A stretch of 64,000 nucleotides of DNA, from contig JBOEGF010000013.1 in the NCBI GenBank assembly GCA_050633305.1, positions 224,001 through 288,000 on the forward strand. Direction: 5' to 3'. Below the pieces are notes generated by a model. That model worked only from the letters and a program-made list of their open reading frames with translations, was not told the DNA's origin and made no database searches. The DNA is from Nannocystales bacterium (GTDB lineage: Bacteria > Myxococcota_A > Polyangia > Nannocystales > Nannocystaceae). Positions 47,680 to 64,000 of this stretch are shown here, in pieces. The stretch's first letter is position 1. Each line of letters starts with the position of its first letter. The translations under genes and the position numbers were made by a program.

Positions 47680-49089
<1,410 letters not shown>

Positions 49090-49180
49090 GGCGCGGGACC
49101 ATAGCAGCTTGCAAAGGGCCCCCCTGCGGCGCAAGCACCTGCGGGGCCGCCGCTCGCTTCAGCACCAAGAGAGCCTCCCT

Positions 49181-49546
49181 TCACTCGTACTCGATGGCCC
49201 CGAGATCGAACGCATCGAGCCATCCGGGACACACAGGGACACCGTTCGCGCACACGTTCGAGAAGTCGGGGACATCGCACTCACATTGCTCGATCCCCTC
49301 GATGAACCAGGTACAGCCCTCGAAGGCATCGGCGCTGGAGCTGCACACGAGGACGTGGAAGAGACCCTGCTCATCTTCGCCCTCAAAGGTGCACTGCCCC
49401 ATCGGAGTGCGGGAGACCCCGGATTCGATCGCGACCGACGGCGGGCACTCTCCATCCTGCCCCTGGCTCCCATCACCTTGGACGAAGCGTTCGGTACAAC
49501 CGACGAGCAGGAAGACAGCGGCGACAGCGGCGAGCCGAGAGCGCAT
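49181..49546 (-). CDS. Small Cys-rich lipoprotein
   Basis: MRSRLAAVAAVFLLVGC lipobox. Confidence 0.75.
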   Translation of the reverse strand: MRSRLAAVAAVFLLVGCTERFVQGDGSQGQDGECPPSVAIESGVSRTPMGQCTFEGEDEQGLFHVLVCSSSADAFEGCTWFIEGIEQCECDVPDFSNVCANGVPVCPGWLDAFDLGAIEYE

Positions 49547-49667
49547 GGCCGAGGGTACGGCGGCTAGGCCGGAACCCCAAGCTGCAGCTCGCCCCTGCTC
49601 CTGGGGAACCCAAAACCGGCCGGTCCTCTCTTGGTAAGCGCTCTGGTTTCGGCCAAACGCCTGGGAT

Positions 49668-51113
49668 ATGCCTACGCGGGTGTCCGACGTCGCTCCTTCG
49701 GAAACACCTTCCATCTTTCGCCGTGTCGTCGGCTTCGCAACGCCGGTCGCCTTCGGCGTCGTGGCGTTTGTGATGATGCAGCGAGCACGAGAGGAGCCGC
49801 CACGGCGCCCGCCTTCGGAGCAGGGCAAGGCCGTCCGAACCGCCGGGGTGATCGAGGCTGAGGCCATCCCTCGCGCGGTTGGCTATGGCGTGGTCCGCTC
49901 CTCCCGAGAATGGAGCCTTGTGGCCGAGGTGTCCGGTCGTGTTGTCGAGCTCAATGACAAGCTCGAGGACGGCCGCATCATTCGCGAAGGGGAGCGACTC
50001 ATCAAGATCGATCCGGCAGGCTTCGAGCTGAGCGCTTCGCAGCAAAAGGCCACGGTCAGCAATGTAAAGGCACAACTCAGCGAACTCGCCGTTCGGGAGA
50101 AGAACACCAAGGCCAGTCTCGCGATCGCCAAGCGGTCTCTCGAGCTGTCGGAGAAGGAGCTCGCGAGGGTCAAGAAGCTCGAGAGCAGCGGCACAGCTTC
50201 GTCTTCGGAAGTCGATTCGGCCGAAGTCTCGGTGCTCACGCAACGTCAGTCGGTCCAGTCGTACAAGTCGACGCTCGCTCAGATCCCGGCCCAGCGCCGC
50301 GCCTACAAAGCCCAGATCTCGCAGTACGAAGCCGGGGTGAAGACAGCCGAGCTCGACGTCGCACGGACCGAGATCTTCGCGCCATTCGATGTCCGCATCC
50401 GCTCCGCGGACGTCGAGCTCAGCGAGCTGGTCACCGTGGGCGCCAAACTTGCCGAAGGAGACGGCATCGCGCTTGCCGAGGTCCCTGCCCAGTTCTCGAT
50501 CGGCTCACTGATGCCCCTCATCGCGCCGCCCAAGGATGTGGACGAGCCTCCCGCAGCAGCCGAGGACACACCCGAGACACCTTCGGATGAGGCGCTCTCT
50601 GCCCGTGCCCTCGCCCGTCGGTCGGCGCAGGCCGGACTCAAGGCCACCGTCACGTTGGAGAGCGGGGCCGTGGTGACGAGCTGGGAGGCGGCGTTCGACC
50701 GCTTTGCCAATGTCGAGAGCGCCACCCGAACCGTCTCGGTCGTGGTCGCTGTCGATGACCCCTTCGGCAAGGCGTCCCGCGGCCGACGGCCACCGCTGGT
50801 CTCGGGAATGTACGTGGAGGTCGAACTCGAGGGCTTACCCCGCCCCGGCTGTCTCGCGGTGCCCCGCGGCGCGCTGCGGTCAGACACGCTGCACGTTGTC
50901 GATGCCCAACAACGGCTCGCCATTCGCCCCGTCGAGGTCGCCTTCGTCCAGGAGACCTACGCCTGTATCGACAGCGGCGTCAAAGCCGGTGACCAAGTCG
51001 TGCTCACGGATGTGGTCCCCGCAATCGAAGGAACCCTCCTCGAGCCGCGGGTGGATGAGCGCGCTGTGGCCCAACTGGCCGAGGCCGTCGACGGAGAGGC
51101 CCAAGCCCAATGA
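49668..51113 (+). CDS. RND efflux periplasmic adaptor (MFP)
   Basis: N-terminal TM, EVSGRVV lipoyl half, coiled coil, APFD, GMYVEV, AVPR.AL. Confidence 0.93.
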   Translation: MPTRVSDVAPSETPSIFRRVVGFATPVAFGVVAFVMMQRAREEPPRRPPSEQGKAVRTAGVIEAEAIPRAVGYGVVRSSREWSLVAEVSGRVVELNDKLEDGRIIREGERLIKIDPAGFELSASQQKATVSNVKAQLSELAVREKNTKASLAIAKRSLELSEKELARVKKLESSGTASSSEVDSAEVSVLTQRQSVQSYKSTLAQIPAQRRAYKAQISQYEAGVKTAELDVARTEIFAPFDVRIRSADVELSELVTVGAKLAEGDGIALAEVPAQFSIGSLMPLIAPPKDVDEPPAAAEDTPETPSDEALSARALARRSAQAGLKATVTLESGAVVTSWEAAFDRFANVESATRTVSVVVAVDDPFGKASRGRRPPLVSGMYVEVELEGLPRPGCLAVPRGALRSDTLHVVDAQQRLAIRPVEVAFVQETYACIDSGVKAGDQVVLTDVVPAIEGTLLEPRVDERAVAQLAEAVDGEAQAQ

Positions 51114-54100
51114 TCGGCTACCTCGCTCGGCACCCGACCGCCGCCAACCTCCTGATGATCACCCTGCTCCTGCTCGGTGTTCTAGGGCTCACCTCACTCA
51201 AACGAGAGACCTTTCCCGAGTTCACCCCCTCGGTGGTCACCATCACCGTCGCCTACCCCGGCGCGTCCGCCGAGGATGTCGACGAGGCCATCGTGGCGCG
51301 GGTCGAAGACGCGGTCGACGGCATCGAGTACCTCGACCGAATGACCTCCAAGGCCCGCCAAGGTGTGGGCGTGGTGACGCTGGAGATGGAAGACGGCGGA
51401 GCGCTGGACGCGTTCAAGTCCGACATCGACAGCGCTGTCGATGCGATCAACGACTTCCCCAACGAAGCCGAGGACCCCGTGGTCGCCGAGGTAACCGGCA
51501 TGAGCGCGGTCGCCTCGATCGCGGTCCGTGGCCCGATGAGCGTCCCCGACCTCGAGCGCTACTGCGAAGAACTCAAGGACGAACTCCAACGCTACGAAGA
51601 GGTCTCGCAGATCGAGATCGCCGGGTTCTCCACGCCGCAGCTTCAGGTACGGGTCAAGCAATCGGTTGCTTCGTCCTACGGACTGAGCGTCGGCGATCTC
51701 GCTGACCTCATCGCCGCGCAGAGCCTTGACCTCCCGGTCGGCTCGCTCGAGACGCGGGGCGGAGAGATCCTGGTGCGGTTCGCGGAACAGCGACGAAGCA
51801 TCGAGGAGTTCGCCCGACTTCCGGTGGTGGGCAGCGCACTCGGAGGCGAGGTGCCCCTGGGAGACCTCGCAGACATCGAGTACACGTTCGAGGACGCCGA
51901 GGAGCAGACCCTGTTCAACGGCAAGCGTGCCGGCCTTCTGCGGGTGAGCAAGACGTCCAGCCAGGACGCACTCGAGATCTTCTCCGCGATGGAGGAGTTC
52001 GTGGAGCTCAAGTCCGCGACGGCCCCACCGGGCGTCGAGCTTGTCATCACCGACGATGCCGCGACCCCCATCGAGCAGCGACTCGAGCTGCTGACGAACA
52101 ACGGCTTTCAGGGGTTGGTGCTCGTCTTCGTCACCCTGTGGCTGTTCTTCAACACCCGCCTGGCCCTGTGGGTGGCCGCCGGCCTGCCCGTGTCGTTCAT
52201 GGGCGGCCTGTGGATCATGTCGCTGATCGGCTACACGCTGAACATGATGACCATGATGGCCCTGCTGCTCGCACTGGGGCTGTTGATGGACGACGGCATC
52301 GTGTTGGCCGACAACATCGCGGCGCACCTGCGGCGCGGCAAGAGCTCCTATCGGGCCGCAATCGACGGCGTCACCGAGGTCTGGCCGGGCATCGTGTCGT
52401 CATTCCTGACGACGGTCTGCGTCTTCACGCCGCTGTCCATGCTCGATGGGCAGATCGGCCGGGTCCTTCTTGTGATTCCCGTCGTACTCATCGCCGTCCT
52501 CAGCATCAGCCTGATCGAGGCCTTCGGCATCCTGCCCAACCACATCGCGCACTCGTTGCATGGCCGCGACATCGACAAACGCTCTCGCGCGCGAGCGTGG
52601 TTCGACAGTGGCTTCGAGCGCTTCCGGGAACAAATCGTGGGCCGTGCGTCGGACTGGGCGATCCACCACCGCTACATCACCGTCGGATCTGCGATCGCGT
52701 TCTTCGTCATCTCGATCGGGCTCATGGCGGGCGGCATCCTCAAGTTCGAAGGGTTCCCCGATACCGATGGTGACACCGCCGAGTTCCGGCTCCGGATGCC
52801 CGCCGGAACCCCTCTGGAGGTCACCCAGGCTGAAGTGGCGCGGGTCGTCTCGGGGCTCCAGCAGATCGACGCCGAGTTGACGCCGCAGCAACCCGAGGCC
52901 GCACCGCTCATCGAGAACATCGTCGTTCGGATGAACTACAACCCCGACTCGCCGGACTCGGGGCCACACATCGCGACGGTCAAGGCGGATCTTCTCAGTG
53001 TCGAGGTCCGCAGCACCACCCTCGACCAGCTCAAGACCGCCTGGCGCGAAACCGTGGGGCCGCTGTCCGACGCCACGTCCGCCAGCTTTGCCAGCGCCGC
53101 GATGGGCCCGGGCGGAGCCGCGATCGAGTTGCGGGTTCAGGGCAGCGACCTCGACCGCATGTCGGAAGCCGCGGTGGAGATCGAACGCTGGCTCGGCGGG
53201 TTCGAAGGCGTGTTCGACCTCGGAACCGACCTTCAACCCGGGACCCCGCAGGTGCGGGTGCGCCTGCGCTCGGGTGCCTTGGGCAGCTCCGCGCAGTCCG
53301 TACAAGTCGCGCAGCAGCTCCGCTCCGCGTTCTCCGGCGACCGAGCCCAAGACGTCCGCATCGGCGCGCAGGACTACGAGGTCACGGTTCAGCTGGCAGA
53401 TTCGGGTCGCGACACGCTCTCGGACCTCGAGTATTTCGAGCTCCAGCTGGGGGGCGAGCGCGTCCCCCTGGGCACCGTCGCCGACGTCTCCGCGGACAAC
53501 ACATTTGCCGCGATCGCCCGCGTCAACGGCACGCGCACCGTCACGCTGACCGGTGACATCGATGCAGAGGTCGCGAACTCGGCCGAACTCATGCAGCGCT
53601 TCAACAACGAGCTGTTGCCTGAACTCGCACAGAAGTACCCCGGGCTCCGGTTCGAGGTCGGAGGCAGCACCGAGGAGTCTGGGAAGACCGCCCAATCCAT
53701 GCTCACCGCGTTCGGCATCGGGCTGTTTGGGGTCTTCTTTCTGTTGAGTTTCCAGTTCCGATCCTACGTCGAACCACTGGTCGTCATGCTCGCCATCCCG
53801 CTCGCACTGACCGGCGTCATGTGGGGCAACCTGTTCATGGGAGACCCGCTCACCCTGCCGGGCATCCTCGGGTTCATCTCCCTGGCCGGCGTCGTGGTCA
53901 ACGACTCCATCTTGCTGATGGTCTTCATCAAGGCCGGGCTTCGCGAGGGGCTCGATCCCACGGCCGCGGCACAAGGAGCCTCTCGGAGCCGCTTTCGGGC
54001 GATCCTGCTGACCTCGGCCACCACGGTCGCAGGACTGGTGCCCCTGATGTTCGAGCGAAGCCAGCAGGCGCAAACACTCATCCCGGTGGCCACCAGCATC

Positions 54101-54232
54101 GTGTTCGGGATGCTCGCTTCGACCGTGCTTCTGCTGCTCGTCTTGCCCGCGATGTACGCAATGCTGGGAGACTTCGGTCTCACCGCCAAGCCTGGCGCAA
54201 CCGTAGGCGGCGCCGACGATGAGGAGTCTTGA
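51110..54232 (+). CDS. RND efflux permease (AcrB/AcrD/AcrF family)
   Basis: YPGASAEDV, GLLMDDGIV, GVVVNDSI, RFRAILLTS.TT..GL.PL. Confidence 0.97.
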   Translation: MIGYLARHPTAANLLMITLLLLGVLGLTSLKRETFPEFTPSVVTITVAYPGASAEDVDEAIVARVEDAVDGIEYLDRMTSKARQGVGVVTLEMEDGGALDAFKSDIDSAVDAINDFPNEAEDPVVAEVTGMSAVASIAVRGPMSVPDLERYCEELKDELQRYEEVSQIEIAGFSTPQLQVRVKQSVASSYGLSVGDLADLIAAQSLDLPVGSLETRGGEILVRFAEQRRSIEEFARLPVVGSALGGEVPLGDLADIEYTFEDAEEQTLFNGKRAGLLRVSKTSSQDALEIFSAMEEFVELKSATAPPGVELVITDDAATPIEQRLELLTNNGFQGLVLVFVTLWLFFNTRLALWVAAGLPVSFMGGLWIMSLIGYTLNMMTMMALLLALGLLMDDGIVLADNIAAHLRRGKSSYRAAIDGVTEVWPGIVSSFLTTVCVFTPLSMLDGQIGRVLLVIPVVLIAVLSISLIEAFGILPNHIAHSLHGRDIDKRSRARAWFDSGFERFREQIVGRASDWAIHHRYITVGSAIAFFVISIGLMAGGILKFEGFPDTDGDTAEFRLRMPAGTPLEVTQAEVARVVSGLQQIDAELTPQQPEAAPLIENIVVRMNYNPDSPDSGPHIATVKADLLSVEVRSTTLDQLKTAWRETVGPLSDATSASFASAAMGPGGAAIELRVQGSDLDRMSEAAVEIERWLGGFEGVFDLGTDLQPGTPQVRVRLRSGALGSSAQSVQVAQQLRSAFSGDRAQDVRIGAQDYEVTVQLADSGRDTLSDLEYFELQLGGERVPLGTVADVSADNTFAAIARVNGTRTVTLTGDIDAEVANSAELMQRFNNELLPELAQKYPGLRFEVGGSTEESGKTAQSMLTAFGIGLFGVFFLLSFQFRSYVEPLVVMLAIPLALTGVMWGNLFMGDPLTLPGILGFISLAGVVVNDSILLMVFIKAGLREGLDPTAAAQGASRSRFRAILLTSATTVAGLVPLMFERSQQAQTLIPVATSIVFGMLASTVLLLLVLPAMYAMLGDFGLTAKPGATVGGADDEES

Positions 54233-55530
54233 TGAGAAGATGGGCGCGCCCCACGAGGCTCGGCCTAGCGCTGTTGCTCAGCCTCGGGGCGTGCGGGACC
54301 ACTGAGGGCCGAGAGCCGCCCCCGAGCGCGGCAAAACCAGATCCCGCGCCCACTCTCGAAGGCACGTGGCGAGCCACCCTGACCTCTCCAGGCGGCGAGC
54401 TCCCATTCGAGCTCCACGTTCATGACCGGGAGGGAACGCTGCAGGCTACGGCGCACAACGGCACCGAGACCGTAGAGTTCACATCCGTGTCTCTGGGCGG
54501 CGACACGGCCGTCCTTCGCATCGACGGATACGATTCCGAAGTCCGTGCCACGCTCAAGGATGATGGGCAGAGCCTCTGGGGCGTGTGGACAAAGACCACG
54601 CCCGATGGTCCGTCTTCGATGCCATTCGCAGCCACCCGCGGGGCGCAACCTCGCTTCTCCAGCGAAACTCCCGCACCGAGCTACGACGTCCCAAAATCGG
54701 TCGACGGCGAGTGGTCCGTCCGCTTCCGCGAAGAGGACGACAGCACCTTCGTAGGCCATGCGATCCTCACGTCGAGCGACGGAGCACTACATGGGACCAT
54801 CCTGACCGATACGGGTGACTACCGGTACCTCGAGGGACGCTACGCAAACGGTACCGTGGAGCTCTCGTGCTTTGACGGGGGGCATGCGTTCTTGTTTCGA
54901 GCGACGGTTGCCGAGGATGGATCGCTCGAAGGCAACTTCTGGTCCCGCGCGAGCTACCACGCGACGTGGACCGCAACACCGATGAGTCCGGGTCAGGCCA
55001 GCCCGCTCGCGGACCCCTTCACCGCGGTCACCCTGTCGTCTCGAGAGACCGAGGGCCGATTCCGCTTCGCGTTCCCGGACAGCTCAGGCGCCACCGTGAC
55101 CGACGAGGACCCTCGTTTTCGCGACAAGGTGGTCCTCATCGACATCTTCGGAACCTGGTGCCCCAACTGCAACGATTACGCGCCGGTCCTCGCCCGCTGG
55201 CATGACACCTATGGCCCCCGTGGACTCGAGATCGTCGGCCTCGCCTTCGAGTTCACCGGGGACGTCAAGCGCGACCGAGCCCAGCTTGCGACCTACGCCC
55301 AAACCCACGGCATCACCTTCCCCCTACTGCTCGCCGGTACCAGCGACAAAGGAGACGCAGCCGAGCTGCTGCCCTCGATCGACGAAGTGAAATCGTATCC
55401 GACCACCATCCTGGTCGGACGGGACGGCCGCGTGCACAAGATCCACAGCGGCTTCGCCGGACCGGCGACAGGGAAACACCACGAGCGACTCCTCAACACA
55501 CTCCAGACGGAGATCGAGTCCCTGCTGTAG
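54229..55530 (+). CDS. TlpA/redoxin-family lipoprotein
   Basis: LGAC lipobox; GTWCPNC, YPTT..VGRDG.V..IHSGF.GP. Confidence 0.92.
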   Translation: MMRRWARPTRLGLALLLSLGACGTTEGREPPPSAAKPDPAPTLEGTWRATLTSPGGELPFELHVHDREGTLQATAHNGTETVEFTSVSLGGDTAVLRIDGYDSEVRATLKDDGQSLWGVWTKTTPDGPSSMPFAATRGAQPRFSSETPAPSYDVPKSVDGEWSVRFREEDDSTFVGHAILTSSDGALHGTILTDTGDYRYLEGRYANGTVELSCFDGGHAFLFRATVAEDGSLEGNFWSRASYHATWTATPMSPGQASPLADPFTAVTLSSRETEGRFRFAFPDSSGATVTDEDPRFRDKVVLIDIFGTWCPNCNDYAPVLARWHDTYGPRGLEIVGLAFEFTGDVKRDRAQLATYAQTHGITFPLLLAGTSDKGDAAELLPSIDEVKSYPTTILVGRDGRVHKIHSGFAGPATGKHHERLLNTLQTEIESLL

Positions 55531-56276: not shown

Positions 56277-57350
56277 GTGTTAGCTTGCGCCGACGTGCGC
56301 GAAGCTGCCGCAATCCTTCTGCTCGTGAGCGCCGCTTGCGGGTCTTCTCCGTCGCAGACGGCCGACTCGACCAGCACCGGGGACGACCCGTCCACGGGCA
56401 CGGCGCTGGACGTCACATCCTCGACGATGTCCCTGCCTCATTCGTCGACCTCGAACTCGACGAGTGAGGATGGCTCGAGTGGATCGTCCGGCATCGGGCA
56501 GCCCGATCTACCGGACCCTGATCCGGATCCTCCGCAGGCGTCCGAGTACTGCGAGTCCATCGTCGACAGCTTCTGCGACTTCTACGCTCGATGCGGGCGG
56601 ATGGACGTGGCGTCGGCAGAGCTTTGCCACGAGCCCTTCTTGGAGTCGTGCAACACCGTCTTCGAACCGCAGTATGTGGGGCTCGAGGCTGCGGGCTTGC
56701 TGACGTTGAGCGCCGAAGGACTGCTGGCATGCGAAGAGCACCTGGCGGACGTCGCCTGCGAGGAACAGATCTTCGAGCTCACGGGGCCCTGCAGCAACCT
56801 GTGGTCTGGCACCCAAACCGCAGGCGAGGGCTGCGGGCTCGATGTCGAGTACTACGTCTGCGATCCCTCGGCAGCGTGCACGATCGGCTTGGACTTCTGC
56901 GGCACGTGCGAAACGTTGCTCGAGCCGGGCGACGATTGCACCCCCGACGGAACGACCTGTGGCCCCGATGCGTTCTGCGATGTAGACGCGTGCCGGGCTC
57001 GCGTCCCCAACGGTGGTCGCTGCACCCCCGACGACCGCTGCTTGGCAGGGTCAGCCTGTACTGACGGAACTTGCCAAGGACCGACATTCGTCGGCCTCGG
57101 TGACACCTGCGACATCACGCGGCGCTGCCCGTACCTCACCGCGTGTGTCGCTGGCGTGTGCACGTCGACGCCCCGGCTGGGAGACGCCTGCTCGCCGGAC
57201 ATCCCCTGTGAGGTCGGGTTCTGCGACGGCGATTCGTGCCAGGCTCCGCGCGACAACGGCGAAATGTGTGGTGGAAACCCAGAGTGCAGCTCGGGCATGT
57301 GTGTCGAAAACGTGTGCGAACCACGACCCTCGGGCTGCATTGCAAACTGA
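56277..57350 (+). CDS. Cys-rich repeat lipoprotein
   Basis: SAAC lipobox; many G..C....C.....C..G.C repeats. Confidence 0.85.
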   Translation: MLACADVREAAAILLLVSAACGSSPSQTADSTSTGDDPSTGTALDVTSSTMSLPHSSTSNSTSEDGSSGSSGIGQPDLPDPDPDPPQASEYCESIVDSFCDFYARCGRMDVASAELCHEPFLESCNTVFEPQYVGLEAAGLLTLSAEGLLACEEHLADVACEEQIFELTGPCSNLWSGTQTAGEGCGLDVEYYVCDPSAACTIGLDFCGTCETLLEPGDDCTPDGTTCGPDAFCDVDACRARVPNGGRCTPDDRCLAGSACTDGTCQGPTFVGLGDTCDITRRCPYLTACVAGVCTSTPRLGDACSPDIPCEVGFCDGDSCQAPRDNGEMCGGNPECSSGMCVENVCEPRPSGCIAN

Positions 57351-57478
57351 GCCCACGCCCGGCACGTCTGTATGCTGCACGCGATGCGCAGGCGTAGGGT
57401 CGTCGGACCTCGATGAGAGCCCGCTGAAGGAGCTCCGCTAGAACCGTGGTCGAAGAAGCAAGAACCGCTGGCCAACCC

Positions 57479-58072
57479 ATGCGAGTCGCGATCGTCACCC
57501 TGGAAGCGTTCAACGAGCTGGACAGCTTCGTCGCCTCCGCGCTCCTGAATCGAGCGCCGGAGGTCCGGGCGTCGATCTGCTGCCCGAGCGACACGGTGAC
57601 CTCGATGAACGGCGTGAGCATCACTGCCCAAGCACCGCTCGAGTCGGCGGCAGAGGCAGACGCAGTCCTGATCGGGAGCGGACGGAGGACCCTAGACTAC
57701 CTGGAGGACCGCTCGTTCCTGGCGCGGTTGCGGCTCGACCCCACCCGCCAGCTGATCGGTGCGCAGTGCTCAGGCGTGCTGCTGCTTCACCGCCTCGGCC
57801 TCCTCGGAGACACCGCAGCTTCCGACTCCGTGACCACTCCCCGGCTTCAGGAGCGCGGAGTTCACGTCATCCAAGCCCCCCTCCACGTCGAGGGAAACGT
57901 CGCCACCGCGGGAGGATGCCTCGCCTCGCAATACCTCGCCAGCTGGATGCTCGCCCGTATGTGCGGGTGGCCCGAAGCCGCACGCGTGGTCCACGAGGTC
58001 GCTCCGGTCGGCCAAAAGGACGACTACGTCCGGCGCACGGCGGAGGTCGTTACCCCGGCCCTGAGGGCCTGA
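57479..58072 (+). CDS. DJ-1/PfpI family protein
   Basis: FNELDS, ADAVLIGSG, IGAQCSG, GNVATAGGCLASQYL. Confidence 0.93.
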   Translation: MRVAIVTLEAFNELDSFVASALLNRAPEVRASICCPSDTVTSMNGVSITAQAPLESAAEADAVLIGSGRRTLDYLEDRSFLARLRLDPTRQLIGAQCSGVLLLHRLGLLGDTAASDSVTTPRLQERGVHVIQAPLHVEGNVATAGGCLASQYLASWMLARMCGWPEAARVVHEVAPVGQKDDYVRRTAEVVTPALRA

Positions 58073-58216: not shown

Positions 58217-60301
58217 TCAATCGGAACGCTTCCCGCGGGGCGTACGAGAGCCGCCCGCCTCTGCCCCGCGGTACTGCTGATACCAAGGCATGTTGCGAAT
58301 TTCCGCCAAGTAGGCCTGGTACTGGGTTTCGTAGGCTTCTTTGCCGCGCGTGTCGTTGAACAACAGCCGGGTGCCTCGGTAAGCCCGTGCGATGTCGACG
58401 ACCGCGATCACCAACAGCTGAGGGATCCCCGAACGCAACCCGAGCCACGCTCCGCTCGTCATCCACGACTCGTCGCCAAGAGCCAAGACCACCGCGTTGA
58501 GTACGACACAGGCCGCTGTCGAGAACGCGATGTGCTGGTAAACGCTCGTCATCTCACCGAAGGAGAGCGTGTCATAGAGCAGCGCGTTGACCAGCTTGCG
58601 AACGACCGGGATCACCAGGACCAGCGCCAATCCCACGAGCGATAGCCAGCCCAGGGCGAGGCCGAGCAACAAGAAGTTGACGGCGAACAAGGGGACCCAT
58701 GCCATCTTGGCGATCAGGCCGGGCGCGAACATGTTGGTCCAGCGCCGGCAGTACTCCAGATACTTGTCGTTCTCGTCGTTGAGTTCGGGATACCGCGCGG
58801 GAATTCCCGGTCCCGTGAGGTATGCCGAGAACTCCCCGGCCAAGAGCGAAGACCACATCGTGCGGGGCTTGCCCAACGCGTGACTGATCTCCTCGTTGGT
58901 CATTCCCGTGAACTGGGTGTGCTCGAGCCCCTCGTACTCCTGCCCGGACTCCAAGTAGTTGTACTTCCACGACGCCATCCGGGCGTCGAACTCGCGAACG
59001 AACTTCGTGTGAAACGAGCCGTCATCGATGAGGCGATGGATGAACTCGCACTGGATCTCCGACGTGCCCGCAAACGCCCCGGTGGTAGGCCGCTCGACGC
59101 CTACGAAGTAGACGTTGGGTCGCTTCGCGTTCCACAGCCCGTAGAGGCAGTCGGTGTAGTTGTATGTCCAGGCCTCTCCGTTGGAGCCCAGGATCTCGAC
59201 CGGCGCCGGACGTGCAATGCCAGCCTTGATCCGTCGGTCGACCTTGACCGGCTCGCCGTCGATCTCGCACACATCGTCTCGAACCCAGTCCACCCGCTTG
59301 GGGTGCACCACCCTCAAGTCTCCCCGCTTCATGAAGAAGTACGGGTCGTTGAGGAGCATGCGGTGCGAGAGCATCTGCTCCCGATACTCGCCGTCGAAGT
59401 GTGCGAAGAACGAGTCGATGGACCAGTATTTGACGGGTAGCCCGAAGCCCGCGTTGACCCCGGTCCGAAGCAAGTAGCTACGCCACGCCGAAGGGAGGTC
59501 CTTTCGGTAGAAGTCCTCCGGAGTCATGAGTTCATCCAGACCGGACTTCTTGCGGAACAGCCGAGAGAGCCAAGTGTCACCGTAGGGCGAGACGGCGGTA
59601 CACAGAGCGCTGCGGTACGAACGCTCGTGGTTGTACTTGGCCAGGTACTGGTACGGCTCGAACATGTCCAAAGGCGCCCACGCCTTGGATTGCCCCTCCA
59701 TGTAGAACACCTTGTCGAGGTTCTGGAAGTGCTCGGTGCAGAAGATGACCTTGTTGCCACCGAGCATCAGTCGCGACATGTACATGTTGCTGGTGTCGCC
59801 GTAGCCGTCGATGACCACCGTCTTGTTCTGGAGGTGGAGCGTCTCCTGCAGCGTTTCACAGATGCCGGGGCCATCCACGGTCTGCGCCGCCGTGACCACC
59901 AGATGACGGCAGCGCACAGAACCCGAGGTTTCCCCCTCCAAACCCACGTCGAACGACCCGTCCGCCCGCTCTTGGTACTTGACCGCCCGCGACCGCACCG
60001 TCCGAGCGCGGATCTCGGAGCAGACATCGGCCTGCAGCCGCTTGTAGTAGTCGGTCGCCGTGAAGAAGTGAAAATCGAGGTCGAAGTCCCACCAGGAAAA
60101 GCCCGCAACCGCGTTGGAAGACAGGAGGTCAAAGTCGTCTTCGTGTTCCGCCAAACGACTCCACACCCCGAAGTCACGCTCCGAGATCACGACGAACGAC
60201 TTCTTCGAGCGCACGAGCAGCCGCAGCAGCGCCAGCGAGGACACGCCCAAGCCCACGACGCAGACGTCGACGGTTTTTCCCGTCCAGTCGTGGTCGTTCA
60301 C
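58217..60301 (-). CDS. AetF-like single-component flavin-dependent halogenase with an internal multi-TM insertion
   Basis: Collinear motifs versus recalled AetF: VCVVGLGVSS/VCIIGFGFSA; VWSRL..FDLLSS/VWDRL..FSLVSS; NKTVVIDGYGDTSN/NKTFVFDTMGDSAN; VKYWSID/IKYWPID; LLND; NVYFVGVERPTTG..SEIQ..FIH/NIYFLGYTRPFTG..TEMQ..FIH; FNDTRGKEAY/FNDMRHKEGY; GTGA overlap with the upstream stop. Confidence 0.85.
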   Translation of the reverse strand: MNDHDWTGKTVDVCVVGLGVSSLALLRLLVRSKKSFVVISERDFGVWSRLAEHEDDFDLLSSNAVAGFSWWDFDLDFHFFTATDYYKRLQADVCSEIRARTVRSRAVKYQERADGSFDVGLEGETSGSVRCRHLVVTAAQTVDGPGICETLQETLHLQNKTVVIDGYGDTSNMYMSRLMLGGNKVIFCTEHFQNLDKVFYMEGQSKAWAPLDMFEPYQYLAKYNHERSYRSALCTAVSPYGDTWLSRLFRKKSGLDELMTPEDFYRKDLPSAWRSYLLRTGVNAGFGLPVKYWSIDSFFAHFDGEYREQMLSHRMLLNDPYFFMKRGDLRVVHPKRVDWVRDDVCEIDGEPVKVDRRIKAGIARPAPVEILGSNGEAWTYNYTDCLYGLWNAKRPNVYFVGVERPTTGAFAGTSEIQCEFIHRLIDDGSFHTKFVREFDARMASWKYNYLESGQEYEGLEHTQFTGMTNEEISHALGKPRTMWSSLLAGEFSAYLTGPGIPARYPELNDENDKYLEYCRRWTNMFAPGLIAKMAWVPLFAVNFLLLGLALGWLSLVGLALVLVIPVVRKLVNALLYDTLSFGEMTSVYQHIAFSTAACVVLNAVVLALGDESWMTSGAWLGLRSGIPQLLVIAVVDIARAYRGTRLLFNDTRGKEAYETQYQAYLAEIRNMPWYQQYRGAEAGGSRTPRGKRSD

Positions 60302-61860
60302 TGTGCCGCCCCCTCCTGGGGCTGGGTAGGCTTCGCCCGCATCCACTCCGCCAACCGACGAACGTAGTCGGTATTGCCACGCCAGTCGTTGTCGAGATCG
60401 TCAGGCAGGAAGAAGCGGTCGACGAGTTCCCCGGACTTGTAGTGTCGGATGATCGGGTGGATGTAGAAGTCCTCAGCCACCCCCACGCCGCGAGGCATCG
60501 CGAACGGGTCCATGTACTCGTCGGACTTCCCGTACTCCAACGTCAGCATGTACAGCTCGGATTCCTCGGACAGCAGCCTTTCGGTGACGTAGTCCACTGG
60601 AACATCACGCAGCAGCTGGAACGCCCCGGGGATGTCTTCGGCTGCTGGTACCACGACATCGGCGAGGAAGCCCGGCTGCAACATCAAGGCGGCCGATGTA
60701 CTCATCCGCTCGATGAGCGCGGAGGCCAGCCCCTCTTCGAGGGCGGACGGCAGGCGCTCGCGCTCGACCCAGGGCCCCTTTCCGTCGCGGCGGCTCACAA
60801 TGGAGACCAGGGACTCGATGTTGTGTCGGAACCCGTGGATGAACGCGGACATCGTCTTCCGATAGTCGCGGGACTGCATCAGCGTCCCGATGAAGAACAT
60901 GTTGGGGACGTTCACCGACTCCCAGTCGCAGGTCATCAGCGGCAGCCGCCCGCACTCTCGGCGCAGTGGTGCGCACGACACATCGAAGATGCCCAGGTCG
61001 GAACAGAAGCCCGTGCACAGCAACACCCGGTCGCAGGGGTACGAGAGCAGCTGCTTCCGAGACTCGAACCAGACGTCGACGACCAACTCCCCATCGACCT
61101 TGCGGACCGCCCGAAGTTCACCGTCGAGGATGTTGTTCTGCGCCTTGAGCTGGTAGGTGTCCAAGAAGTTGTTGTTGACCGCCCGCAGGTGCCCCACGAA
61201 GTGGCTTGCCCAGGCGAGTTTCACGGTGCTGCGCCCGCACACCCAGATCTTGCGCGTGGTCTCGATCAGGGCATCCGCGGTTTCGAACGCGGAGTTCCCC
61301 TTGCCCGCGATGAACACCCGTTGGTCGACGAAGTCGTTGGGGTCGACGGAGAACTCGTCGTAGTTCTCGCAGAGTTCCGCCCCCTCGATGTCGGGTCGAT
61401 GGGCGTTGGGAATGCCCGTTGCGACGAACAGCCGCTCGCACGTGAATACGCGGCCATCCTCCAGAACGACCGAGAACTCGCCTTGCGCCTTGGCGACCTT
61501 GGTGACGGCGCAACCGTAGGAGATCACCAGCTTGTAATGTGCTGCGAACGCCTCGAGGTAGGCCACCAAGGACGAAGCCGTGGGGAAGTAGTCCTTGGAG
61601 AACTCCCGGAACTGCAGTGCTTCGTCGTCGCAGACCAGAGCGTTCCAGTCGTAGCGGCGCCGTGACTCGAGGTCCGGGTACCCGGTGTGGACTTTGTTGA
61701 TCGACAGCAGCCGGTCGTGCCGTGGGTAGCTGTGGAAGAAGGTCCCCGCACTCTCACCGCGCTCCAGCACGAGGTATTCCTCGCCAGACTTGGCGAGCAG
61801 GTGGGCGAGCTGCAGCCCCGCAGGACCGGCGCCGATGATCAGATTGCGAACGTGTGTCAT
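60298..61860 (-). CDS. FOXRED2-like FAD/NAD(P)H oxidoreductase, paralog B
   Basis: IIGAGPAGLQL, YPRH..LLSINK, DWN, GKGNSAFETA, GHLRAVNN.FLDTYQLK, SAFIHGFR. Confidence 0.9.
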   Translation of the reverse strand: MTHVRNLIIGAGPAGLQLAHLLAKSGEEYLVLERGESAGTFFHSYPRHDRLLSINKVHTGYPDLESRRRYDWNALVCDDEALQFREFSKDYFPTASSLVAYLEAFAAHYKLVISYGCAVTKVAKAQGEFSVVLEDGRVFTCERLFVATGIPNAHRPDIEGAELCENYDEFSVDPNDFVDQRVFIAGKGNSAFETADALIETTRKIWVCGRSTVKLAWASHFVGHLRAVNNNFLDTYQLKAQNNILDGELRAVRKVDGELVVDVWFESRKQLLSYPCDRVLLCTGFCSDLGIFDVSCAPLRRECGRLPLMTCDWESVNVPNMFFIGTLMQSRDYRKTMSAFIHGFRHNIESLVSIVSRRDGKGPWVERERLPSALEEGLASALIERMSTSAALMLQPGFLADVVVPAAEDIPGAFQLLRDVPVDYVTERLLSEESELYMLTLEYGKSDEYMDPFAMPRGVGVAEDFYIHPIIRHYKSGELVDRFFLPDDLDNDWRGNTDYVRRLAEWMRAKPTQPQEGAAQ

Positions 61861-63515
61861 TTGCCCATCCCCTGGCTGGCATCGACCAGCCGCATGTCTT
61901 TGTCACGGACGATCAACCGCCGTACGGGGTCCGCCTTCGCCTCCAACGTGTCTCCCCGCATCGAACGCTCGAAATACTCCGCGCACGGTCCGAGATACTC
62001 GCGACCACTCCAGTCGGCGAGAAAGTCCTCGAGCACGTGAAACTCCGACCGCCGCGCGCCGTCCGTGCCAGAGCGCATCTCGACGACGGGGTGGATGTTG
62101 GTACTCGACGCACCGTCGTAGACGTTGGTGCTCCGGTCGTAGTCGTGGGGGTTCGGCGGGTTGTCGCCGAGTCGGAACATCAGAATGTAGAAGTCCCGCC
62201 CCTCGCTGATCTTCGCGCCATGCTCCACCAGGTAGTCGTAGGGATGGGAGAAGATGTACCGCGCGGTGCCCCCGGGCTCTTTGGGAAGCACGATCATGTC
62301 CGCGAGGAAGCCGACCTGCTGCCAAAGCGAGGACACGCGGTTCATCCGGGCGAGGAATGCTTCTGCGAGCGCGCCTCCTGTGGGCTCGACCTCGATCGAG
62401 GGTAGCGGGTCTTGGTGGTAGCGCTCCGCCAGGAGTCCGGCGAGTGACTCGGTGTTGTAGCGGAACCCATGGATGAATGCGGACTGAGCCCGCTTGTGGT
62501 CGAGGAACTGGGTCACCGTCCCCGCGAAGAAGAGACCCGGGACGTTGCTCGACTCGAAGCCAGTGCTCATCGTGGGCAGGCGTCCGCACTCGGAGAGCTC
62601 GGGCAAGCAGGTCTCGTCGAAGATCGACCGGTCGAAGCGAAAGCCGGTACAGCGCAACACCGCGTCGTACTCGATCTGCTCGACTTCGTTGGCTGCGTGA
62701 ATCGAGGAGAAGCTGACACGGATCTTCCCCGTATCGGTGCGCTCCATCCCCTGGACGTTGCCGTCGATGATCCCGTTCTGAGACTTGAGGTGGTACGTGT
62801 CGAGAAAGTTGTTGTTGACCGCCCGCAGGTGCCCCACGAACCGTGAGTCCCACGCGAGGGTGACCGGGTGCGGGCTGAGCATGTGGATGACGGCGGCCGT
62901 GGGAATGAGGTTGTCGGCGGTTTCGAAGGCCGAGTTTCCCTTGCCCAGGATGAGCACGTTCTTGTTGTGGAACTCCGCCGGGTCGACGGACATCGTCTCG
63001 TAGCCCTCGGCGAGTTCGATGCCAGGAACGTCCGGGATCACCGGGGTTCCGACACCCGTCGCAACAACGAGACACCGAGCCCGGTATCGCTGCCCGCCCT
63101 CGCATTCGGCTTCGAAAGACCCCTGGCCATCTTCGCGACGCACCGAGGTCACTCGGCGCTCGAGGTGGACCTGAAGCTCGTTCGCCCGGACGAATCGCGC
63201 AAGGTAGTCGACCAAGACGTCGGCCGAGGGAAAGTACTCTTGGGTCAGCTCCGTCATGCGCCCCGACGCGTCCTCGCTGATCAGCGAGTTCCAGTCGTGG
63301 CGGAGGTTGAATTCCGGGTCGTCCCGGCCCGTTGCCGACTTGTTGATCGACAACAGCGTCCGGTGTCGTGGATACCGTGAGAAGAACGCTCCCACGTGGT
63401 CGGCCCCGTCCAGGACTACGTAGCGACGCCCTGCGCGTTGAAGGAAGTACGCGAGCTGCAGCCCGGCAGGTCCCGCTCCAAGGATGAGGTAGTCGGTTTC
63501 GAACGTCGTCGCCAT
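61857..63515 (-). CDS. FOXRED2-like FAD/NAD(P)H oxidoreductase, paralog A
   Basis: ILGAGPAGLQL, YPRHRTLLSINK..TG...EFNLRHDWNSL, GKGNSAFETA, LKSQNG, SAFIHGFRY. Confidence 0.92.
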   Translation of the reverse strand: MATTFETDYLILGAGPAGLQLAYFLQRAGRRYVVLDGADHVGAFFSRYPRHRTLLSINKSATGRDDPEFNLRHDWNSLISEDASGRMTELTQEYFPSADVLVDYLARFVRANELQVHLERRVTSVRREDGQGSFEAECEGGQRYRARCLVVATGVGTPVIPDVPGIELAEGYETMSVDPAEFHNKNVLILGKGNSAFETADNLIPTAAVIHMLSPHPVTLAWDSRFVGHLRAVNNNFLDTYHLKSQNGIIDGNVQGMERTDTGKIRVSFSSIHAANEVEQIEYDAVLRCTGFRFDRSIFDETCLPELSECGRLPTMSTGFESSNVPGLFFAGTVTQFLDHKRAQSAFIHGFRYNTESLAGLLAERYHQDPLPSIEVEPTGGALAEAFLARMNRVSSLWQQVGFLADMIVLPKEPGGTARYIFSHPYDYLVEHGAKISEGRDFYILMFRLGDNPPNPHDYDRSTNVYDGASSTNIHPVVEMRSGTDGARRSEFHVLEDFLADWSGREYLGPCAEYFERSMRGDTLEAKADPVRRLIVRDKDMRLVDASQGMGK

Positions 63516-63540: not shown

Positions 63541-64000
63541 CTACTCCGACAGGAAATGTGTCCCGCTCTCCAGCGCCGCGTGGGTCCGCGAGAGCATCTC
63601 GTCGCAGAAGCTCTCGGTTCGGTCGAAGATGCCGTGGACGAGTGCTTCTGCTCGAGGGCGCATCGACTCGGGCAGGACGCAGGAGCGAATGTCCTCAACC
63701 TCGCTGCCGATCGCATGACCGGTCTCTCGCTCGAGGTGGTGCTGTGAGAAGTAGACCAGTCGCTCTCGCTGCGGATGCGAGCTGGCAGCACGGGCGGTCG
63801 CAGAAAGCCACACGTTGCCTTGGGCTTCGAGCGCTTCGATGATCACCAAGCGAAGCTCGGCGCTCGCATCTCGGGCGGCCGCGATGACGTAGTGCCCCAG
63901 CTCGCGCGCATGCTTGCCCTCGTCGCTCCACAGGAACCGAAGAACATCCGTAAACCGGCATTCTCGGTCGAATCCTAGGACTTTGAGGTCGTGGAGGAAC
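63541..64000 (-). CDS. AetD-like heme-oxygenase-like diiron oxidase (HDO); 5' part outside the window
   Basis: Manual translation FLHDLKVLGFDRECRFTDVLRFLWSDEGKHARELGH...IIEALEAQG...YFSQHHLERETGHAIG versus recalled AetD FLNDLELLGFDKTMRFSEALRFVWSDDLLHTRRLCH...VIEAMETAG...HVEVETGHAVG. Confidence 0.85.
   Translation of the reverse strand, partial: FLHDLKVLGFDRECRFTDVLRFLWSDEGKHARELGHYVIAAARDASAELRLVIIEALEAQGNVWLSATARAASSHPQRERLVYFSQHHLERETGHAIGSEVEDIRSCVLPESMRPRAEALVHGIFDRTESFCDEMLSRTHAALESGTHFLSE

Follow-up and report, generated by a model that had tools for sequence, protein, structure and literature searches.

The gene at positions 58217–60301 on the minus strand of the window (the whole stretch of 64,000 nucleotides analyzed here) encodes P0001, a single-component flavin enzyme of 694 residues placed in the AetF family by homology and fold. 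Judged from its sequence and structural model, P0001 belongs to the AetF-family flavoenzymes and has retained both the FAD and NADP folds and the putative catalytic Lys/Glu pair. Its core is interrupted by a hydrophobic block of 109 residues (533–641, positions 58379–58705 of the same strand), predicted to be a membrane anchor with up to four crossings, and the enzyme is very probably a membrane-anchored halogenase. That it acts after a neighboring oxidase, on a lipophilic, neutral indole formed from tryptophan, such as skatole, is proposed here as a reading that stands about evenly between acceptance and doubt.

The open reading frame starts with GTG at 60301, which overlaps the stop codon of the upstream gene (GTGA) and is immediately preceded by an AGGAGG site. 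No sigma-70-type promoter was matched at the locus; terminator-like matches there number 8, versus 4.3 expected. A frameshift or an assembly artefact was rejected as the source of the block, since the reading frame is unbroken and 12/12 close homologues carry the block. P0001 is assigned to no family in Pfam or NCBIfam, its Atlas neighbors are FMO clusters only, and its only strong PDB matches found by phmmer are to AetF (E 1e-34), with an identity of only ~25%.

Core fold and catalytic residues

The AlphaFold model of P0001, built from 71 sequences, has a pLDDT of 89.3 and a pTM of 0.90 (an earlier model from 12 sequences had a pLDDT of 73). Its residues 10–679 align with residues 1–551 of AetF, with a Z score of 33.3 and an rmsd of 2.8 Å over 538 residues, and the ancestral FMOs follow behind AetF with Z scores of 25–26. 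The chain carries both the FAD and the NADP Rossmann domains of a class B FMO fold. The FAD-binding motif GLGVSS (residues 17–22, positions 60236–60253, minus strand) aligns with 8-GFGFSA-13 of AetF, and the NADP-binding motif GYGDTS (residues 166–171, positions 59789–59806, minus strand) aligns with 154-TMGDSA-159.

Lys291 (positions 59429–59431, minus strand), located in the VKYW motif of the insertion in the NADP domain, aligns by sequence with the catalytic Lys258 of AetF. An equivalent lysine is found in 52/52 membrane-type rows and 16/16 soluble rows of the alignment, and in 0/3 FMO outgroups. According to the available part of PMC9772203, the K258A variant of AetF has no activity, and the accessible text of PMC10306068 states that Lys258 is not found in FMOs. 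Glu215 (positions 59657–59659, minus strand) corresponds to Glu200 of AetF, the proposed catalytic acid/base, which is Glu in 50/52 membrane-type rows and 16/16 soluble rows. In the same alignment, Leu183, Arg370, Thr373, and Phe524 of AetF are matched by L195, R404, T407, and F648 of P0001, with Arg404 being invariant; the position of Phe372 is occupied by T406 and varies among the soluble members too. The substrate-pocket residue F648 belongs to the FND motif (residues 648–650, positions 58352–58360, minus strand), at which, by both alignment and model, the chain rejoins the AetF fold, and which phmmer pairs with FSFNDMRHKEGY of AetF as a weak second stretch. Thus, the structure comparison bears out the AetF-like fold proposed in the first-pass annotation, as does the alignment for the retained catalytic lysine, which had been placed near 59425 and whose codon occupies 59431–59429.

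Substrate pocket and gene neighborhood

In AetF, the bound Trp is clamped by Gln500, Asp516, Ser523, and Lys587, as described in the available part of PMC10306068. In P0001, Gln500 is replaced by L529 and Ser523 by L647, Lys587 falls in a gap, and the equivalent of Asp516 is uncertain, the alignment being unreliable across the insertion; the free-Trp clamp of AetF proper is therefore missing. The equivalents of Leu183, Leu196, Glu200, Thr373, and Phe524, which contact the indole in AetF, remain. From the aligned sequences, we infer that the block branches off from the core at the Gln500 helix, replaces the wall between Gln500 and Asp516, and returns at Phe648 (Phe524 in AetF). With this wall replaced and the extension carrying Lys587 missing, the pocket would lack the grip that AetF has on a free amino acid. 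In AetF, the Trp site adjoins or overlaps the CYMAL6 detergent, the marker of the membrane interface in AncFMO2 (section 3.6 of PMC10306068, in its accessible portion), so that the pocket of P0001 would face the membrane. The clamp is also missing in VatD and in most soluble members of the family, and the S523A variant of AetF retains Trp binding, according to the available part of bioRxiv 2025.11.10.687318; for these reasons, the loss of the clamp is in itself weak evidence on the nature of the substrate.

The gene of P0001 is the last of a tight run of four on the minus strand. It is preceded by the genes of FOXRED2-like flavoprotein 2 (60298–61860, 520 residues, Pyr_redox_3, with an ATGA overlap with its upstream gene) and FOXRED2-like flavoprotein 1 (61857–63515, 552 residues, 42% identical to flavoprotein 2), and by that of a heme-oxygenase-like diiron oxidase resembling AetD/SktA (E 3e-42 to AetD), of which the 3' part lies at 63541–64000 and which extends past the window to about 64245, yielding a whole protein of ~234 residues. 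All four genes are present at 6/6 close loci with flanks (the own genome, L003, L004, L005, L063, and L064), with their order changed in L003 and with surroundings that differ at each locus. Copies of P0001, of the oxidase, and of flavoprotein 2 with at least 69% identity occur in the same 4/72 genomes of the order.

The diiron oxidase keeps, in alignment to AetD, the three-His/three-carboxylate ligands D76, H79, E140, H172, E176, and H179, as well as F44, F48, and Y167 of the Trp pocket, residues that are named in the available part of PMC11611611; the position of H172 is occupied by Ser in 1/6 homologues. Compared by eye with the sktA sequence taken from the accessible supplement of PMC11869266, the oxidase shares A36, A38, H43, G49, E50, F55, L56, and N144 with SktA, unlike AetD, and L46 and R53 with AetD only, and in its pocket residues it appears to lean to SktA over AetD. 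SktA converts Trp or 5-Br-Trp to skatole, cyanide, and bicarbonate, and the skt cluster further encodes a halogenase together with an FMO for which skatole oxidation is proposed, as far as described in the available text of PMC11869266. Relatives of the FOXRED2-like pair adjoin NRPS genes, a beta-eliminating lyase, P450s, and canonical halogenases; for a comparison of the pair at the position of Lys258, the profile alignment spans only their first 190–210 residues. The conserved neighbor genes point to a Trp-derived indole rather than to an alkyne lipid as the substrate. The homologue from Chloroflexota (44% identical) lies in a different cluster without the cassette, next to genes of a Rieske protein, a PLP decarboxylase, DUF6875, a sulfotransferase, and an AMP ligase, so that the substrate of P0001 should not be generalized to its whole branch. 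Among the distant myxobacterial loci, 2/7 adjoin a canonical halogenase.

In the mechanism proposed here for the membrane-anchored halogenase, P0001 would be located on the inner face of the membrane and, by analogy to AetF, NADPH would reduce the bound FAD, O2 and a halide would then yield HOX, and HOX would pass Lys291 on its way to a distant substrate site. The diiron oxidase would, as its context suggests, turn Trp into skatole if it is SktA-like or into an indole nitrile if it is AetD-like, and the two FOXRED2-like enzymes probably oxidize the indole. The pocket of P0001 would open towards the bilayer, from which the neutral indole (skatole or its oxidized form) could enter, and the enzyme would place Br or Cl on the product partitioned into the membrane, with the order of the last steps left flexible. 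The lipophilic substrate suggested in the first-pass annotation is supported as the likely reason for the presence of the block.

The same neighborhood could also be read in the opposite order, with P0001 as a membrane-anchored Trp halogenase that acts first, like AetF and SktB, and passes the halogenated Trp to the diiron oxidase, the block serving as a polar grip or as a localizer of the pathway. In both known pathways, aet and skt, the halogenase precedes the diiron oxidase, as described in the accessible parts of their reports, and the cassette contains no other halogenase; the retained residues that contact the indole, as well as Trp binding by the S523A variant of AetF, agree with such an order as well. 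However, the equivalents of Q500, S523, and K587 are missing, a zwitterionic substrate provides no reason for a membrane block of 110 residues, and a canonical Trp halogenase is encoded elsewhere in the genome (C24). Moreover, plain Trp is accepted by SktA, so that earlier halogenation is unnecessary, and we regard this order as unlikely, though far from negligible.

Hydrophobic block and the two family architectures

The interval 58375–58720, in which a transmembrane insert of ~115 residues had been annotated directly before FNDTRGKEAY, corresponds to residues 528–643 of the minus-strand ORF 58217–60301; the hydrophobic segments quoted for it are present, and the codon of F648 occupies 58360–58358. 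Because the model (residues 10–679) aligns with AetF on both sides of the block, the block is an insertion and not a tail, as had been claimed. Its hydrophobic, helical character stands, but its length is 109 residues and the net gain over AetF is ~90 residues (a spacer of 245 residues versus 154–157).

The block is composed of an uncharged hairpin (533–567), an amphipathic helix (568–587), a further helix (588–609), a short acidic loop, and a kinked helix (617–641). The helices of the AlphaFold model comprise residues 511–550, a short segment 553–563, an amphipathic helix 565–585, a helix 587–608, and a kinked pair 617–642. The best Kyte-Doolittle means over 35 residues (2.28) and over 108 residues (1.35) were each matched by 0/2000 shuffles, the best 19-residue window (2.54) by 15/2000, and the 35-residue stretch devoid of D, E, K, R, and H (533–567) by 12/2000. 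The corresponding maxima in AetF, VatD, and two further soluble relatives are 0.87 over 35 residues and 0.07 over 108 residues. K532, R568/K569, and R639/R642 are basic residues on the core side of the block. Helices that are long, hydrophobic, and uncharged, combined with basic residues towards the cytoplasm, are seen in both model and sequence, as in an integral membrane protein. In the 12 close homologues, the hydrophobic helices have an identity of 0.50–0.53 and a charged fraction of 0.01–0.12, compared with 0.72 and 0.25 for the core. N542, D577, H590, N602, D636, and R639, which are invariant or nearly so in these homologues, could form a new polar site inside the block. As modeled, the FND motif would be brought back to the core side by two hairpins whose outer loops are short, and membrane embedding most simply accounts for a hydrophobic block in the interior of the chain.

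The block is a marker of a second architecture of the family and is not peculiar to P0001. A search over 1.84 billion representatives, started from a membrane-type query, yielded 84 matches, 35 of them with at least 590 residues. Among these 35 full-length representatives at 50% identity, 34 reach the FND position after a long spacer (224–345 residues) and one is spaced like AetF; with P0071 being doubtful and P0021 cut at its start, the block is present in 33–34/35. A search with a soluble representative as query listed 100 clusters (90% identity), 95 of them full-length, and among those listed 70 are of the short form (spacer of 154–157 and tail of 105–158 residues) and 25 of the long form (spacer of 224–240 and tail of 22–44 residues). 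The counts from both searches indicate that both forms are common, with the membrane form spanning more diversity. AetF (P0198), VatD (P0161), and a homologue from Lentisphaerae (P0174) have the short spacer. Unlike this soluble AetF/VatD clade, the 12 close homologues of P0001 have a spacer of 244–251 residues and a tail of 29–51 residues; a second homologue search (alignment A2) returned the same 12 proteins only.

Membrane-type records come from Myxococcales, Xanthobacteraceae, Chloroflexota, and eukaryotes, the last of these represented by Gymnodinium smaydae, Paulinella chromatophora, and Cymbomonas tetramitiformis, although the transcriptome records among them could be contaminants, as could the EukProt transcript of the membrane type that is 47% identical to P0001. 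In a phylum-wide sample of 401 genomes, the only true match was in the own genome, accompanied by one ordinary FMO, and the plasmid collection yielded no family member. A related genome (L038) encodes an ordinary FMO that lacks the Lys and also shows, at the same position as the block, a hydrophobic hairpin.

Independently of what the substrate is, the block might not cross the membrane, being instead a monotopic or re-entrant anchor, or the buried oligomer interface of a soluble halogenase. In the model, its second helix is short (about 14 residues) and the last one is kinked and polar, with R623, Q628, and D636, yet 35 uncharged residues follow each other in a row and only 8% of the 109 residues are charged. 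In a plain Hessa sum, most windows are poor (residues 546–564 are clearly favorable at −2.4, 591–609 marginal at +0.8, and two flanking windows unfavorable at +6.4 and +8.3), and 7/34 long-spacer representatives contain only one window with a Kyte-Doolittle value of at least 1.5. Nevertheless, hydrophobicity is retained while the sequence varies, and a 19-residue window of at least 1.6 is present in 25/25 long-spacer relatives versus 3/70 short-spacer ones among the clusters listed. Since an even number of crossings also places the FND motif on the core side, we consider the absence of membrane crossing clearly unlikely.

The direction of change between the two architectures was approached with trees built on the core only, with the block excluded (71 rows with LG+G4 and 38 rows with a mixture model), both being quick searches with long outgroup branches. 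In both, the soluble enzymes form one clade nested in the membrane forms, and P0001 is found in the deepest and most divergent branch. However, monophyly of the membrane forms was not rejected by the AU tests (p 0.105 with 26 rows and p 0.226 with 71 rows). The favored interpretation is that the block was lost in the lineage of AetF and VatD, a direction statistically unproven by these tests. The view of the block as a special insert added to AetF is not supported by these results, as the block marks a large and more diverse branch, and the soluble forms more likely lost it. We can speculate, tentatively and with somewhat more doubt than belief, that the membrane-embedded form is ancestral and most diverse in the AetF/JamD family, that the soluble enzymes arose by loss of the block, and that the membrane class, shared by algae with marine and soil bacteria, comprises self-sufficient halogenases acting on lipophilic compounds, with the cassette leading to a halogenated skatole-type indole and providing the first chemistry for bacterial FOXRED2-like proteins.

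The first-pass annotation had drawn an analogy to VatD and JamD and their alkynes, and P0001 could accordingly halogenate a lipid-like substrate with a terminal alkyne or alkene. For homologues of AetF, halogenation of alkenes and alkynes is described in the available part of PMC11725856, a membrane anchor fits lipids, and, by eye, neither indole nor halogenase genes were recognized next to 5/7 distant myxobacterial members. The analogy is not supported by VatD itself, which is of the soluble type, has no block, and belongs to the AetF clade, far from P0001. No desaturase, ACP, PKS, or acyl-ligase gene is present in the cassette at 6/6 loci, and its conserved partner is a Trp-type diiron oxidase that indicates an indole, making a lipid substrate decidedly improbable. 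Even less credit can be given to a membrane-bound class B monooxygenase (a hydroxylase or N-oxygenase) or a releaser of free HOX in place of a site-selective halogenase since, although the fold is that of class B FMOs, the Atlas neighbors are all FMO clusters, the identity to AetF is low, and mammalian FMOs, which like other FMOs oxygenate their substrates at the flavin, are membrane-bound, the lysine missing from FMOs is invariant in the family, Glu200 is retained, the structure lies much closer to AetF (Z 33) than to FMOs (Z 26 or less), and two distant members and that from Chloroflexota adjoin canonical halogenase or DUF6875 genes.

Comparison with known systems

AetF from Aetokthonos hydrillicola, a Trp 5,7-dibrominase (8CJD, 8JZ2), shares with P0001 the class B FMO fold, the FAD and NADP motifs, and the residues Lys258, Glu200, Leu183, Arg370, Thr373, and Phe524 (AetF numbering). 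Unlike P0001, it has no hydrophobic block and has the clamp formed by Gln500, Asp516, Ser523, and Lys587, as well as a C-terminal extension of more than 100 residues. VatD from Moorea, named by its source, belongs to the same family and has the catalytic Lys; it is 57% identical to AetF and, unlike P0001, is of the soluble type, with FND at position 523 and no 19-residue window above a Kyte-Doolittle value of 1.38 after residue 440. JamD, for which VatD stands in here, is presumably similar to it. JamD and VatD had also been considered as possible membrane-type enzymes, which is ruled out for VatD by its short spacer and the absence of a hydrophobic block.

Mammalian and ancestral FMOs (AncFMO1, 2, 3-6, and 5) resemble P0001 in their fold (Z 25–26), their membrane association, and the presence of a hydrophobic helix after the core. 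They differ in the absence of Lys258 and in the terminal location of their hydrophobic part, whereas the chain of P0001 re-enters the core after the block. The skt cluster of Nostoc punctiforme NIES-2108 resembles the cassette in combining an AetD-family diiron oxidase, a halogenase, and a flavin monooxygenase, as described in the accessible text of PMC11869266. Its Trp brominase, SktB, is a soluble FDH of the canonical type without homology to AetF, whereas P0001 is a membrane-type relative of AetF. In turn, the N terminus of the FMO SktC, compared by eye as far as its source is available, is like that of a classical FMO and not of FOXRED2, whereas the cassette of P0001 includes two FOXRED2-like genes.

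No membrane-type relative of AetF was found in the literature searched; the papers on JamD (Lukowski 2023) and on AetF homologues (Jiang 2024) lay outside its scope and may mention such enzymes. None is mentioned in the available parts of PMC11725856, PMC13519999, PMC13317684, PMC11264947, PMC11240249, and bioRxiv 2026.08.03.742642, and no paper was found on FOXRED2 in a biosynthetic gene cluster. Within that literature, P0001 is an uncharacterized membrane variant of a known enzyme class, located in an undescribed cassette. The soluble architecture is common to all retrieved family members with reported activity (AetF, VatD for JamD, and one Lentisphaerae homologue). If active, the membrane branch would add to them membrane-bound single-component halogenases for lipophilic substrates, which would be useful in biocatalysis. 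The algal records of the membrane type, if active, would be candidates for the formation of halogenated algal metabolites, for which, to our knowledge, halogenases have not been assigned, and the small, self-contained cassette with its predicted substrate would offer a handle on FOXRED2-like flavoproteins.

The diiron oxidase and the surroundings of the cassette

The AetD-family diiron oxidase of the cassette lies on the minus strand (63541-64000) and runs on beyond the window to about 64245. Its pocket leans towards that of SktA, which converts tryptophan to skatole, cyanide and bicarbonate, and the gene would predict the production of skatole and cyanide in a myxobacterium. Two plus-strand genes converge on the end of the cassette, one encoding a DJ-1/PfpI protein (57446-58072) and the other a cysteine-rich repeat protein (56277-57350); neither was seen beside it at the other cassette loci examined. 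Inspection of 47680-55530 by eye suggests genes for a DEAD-box helicase and a thioredoxin-like lipoprotein, as well as an RND efflux pair at 49668-54232.

FOXRED2-like flavoproteins

Two FOXRED2-like flavoproteins are encoded in tandem on the minus strand (60298-63515); they are translationally coupled, share 42% identity and could possibly form a heterodimer. The motifs RHxxLxSINK and LK are invariant across this family, in which no close relative with a solved structure was found. At locus L068 (283-3351), a gene for a beta-eliminating lyase, tryptophanase-like by eye, is followed directly by a FOXRED2-like gene, a second connection of the family to indole chemistry. In another genome (L067, G421:C96:1983-4969), a FOXRED2-like gene adjoins a long AetD-like open frame of 566 aa; two further genomes (L046 and L047) carry a tandem pair of AetD-like domains within single frames of 533-560 aa.

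Membrane-type AetF relatives in other genomes

Eukaryotic records of membrane-type members, that is, AetF relatives with an internal hydrophobic block, are distributed across several clades (P0012, P0041, P0056 and P0057, from EukProt 'Sspe', Gymnodinium smaydae, Paulinella chromatophora and Cymbomonas tetramitiformis, respectively). An open frame of ~1400 codons (L036:3064-7317) contains a distant family member, and may be a fusion or an artefact of GC-rich upstream sequence. The protein encoded in a related genome at L038:8416-10482 is an ordinary class B FMO that lacks the catalytic Lys and carries a C-terminal hydrophobic hairpin where the membrane-type enzymes have their block.

DUF6875 genes and canonical flavin halogenases are recurrent neighbours of both membrane-type enzymes and FOXRED2-like genes (L031:5498-10975, L034:1-3096, L073:1849-10990 and L006:15089-15823). 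The genome of the window itself encodes a canonical tryptophan halogenase (G000:C24:403210-404634), unlinked to the cassette. At a Chloroflexota locus (L006:8324-19738), the membrane-type enzyme is clustered with a Rieske ferredoxin, a PLP decarboxylase, a sulfotransferase, an AMP ligase and two unknown proteins paralogous to each other; this cluster is a pathway other than that of the window's cassette, and one undescribed so far.
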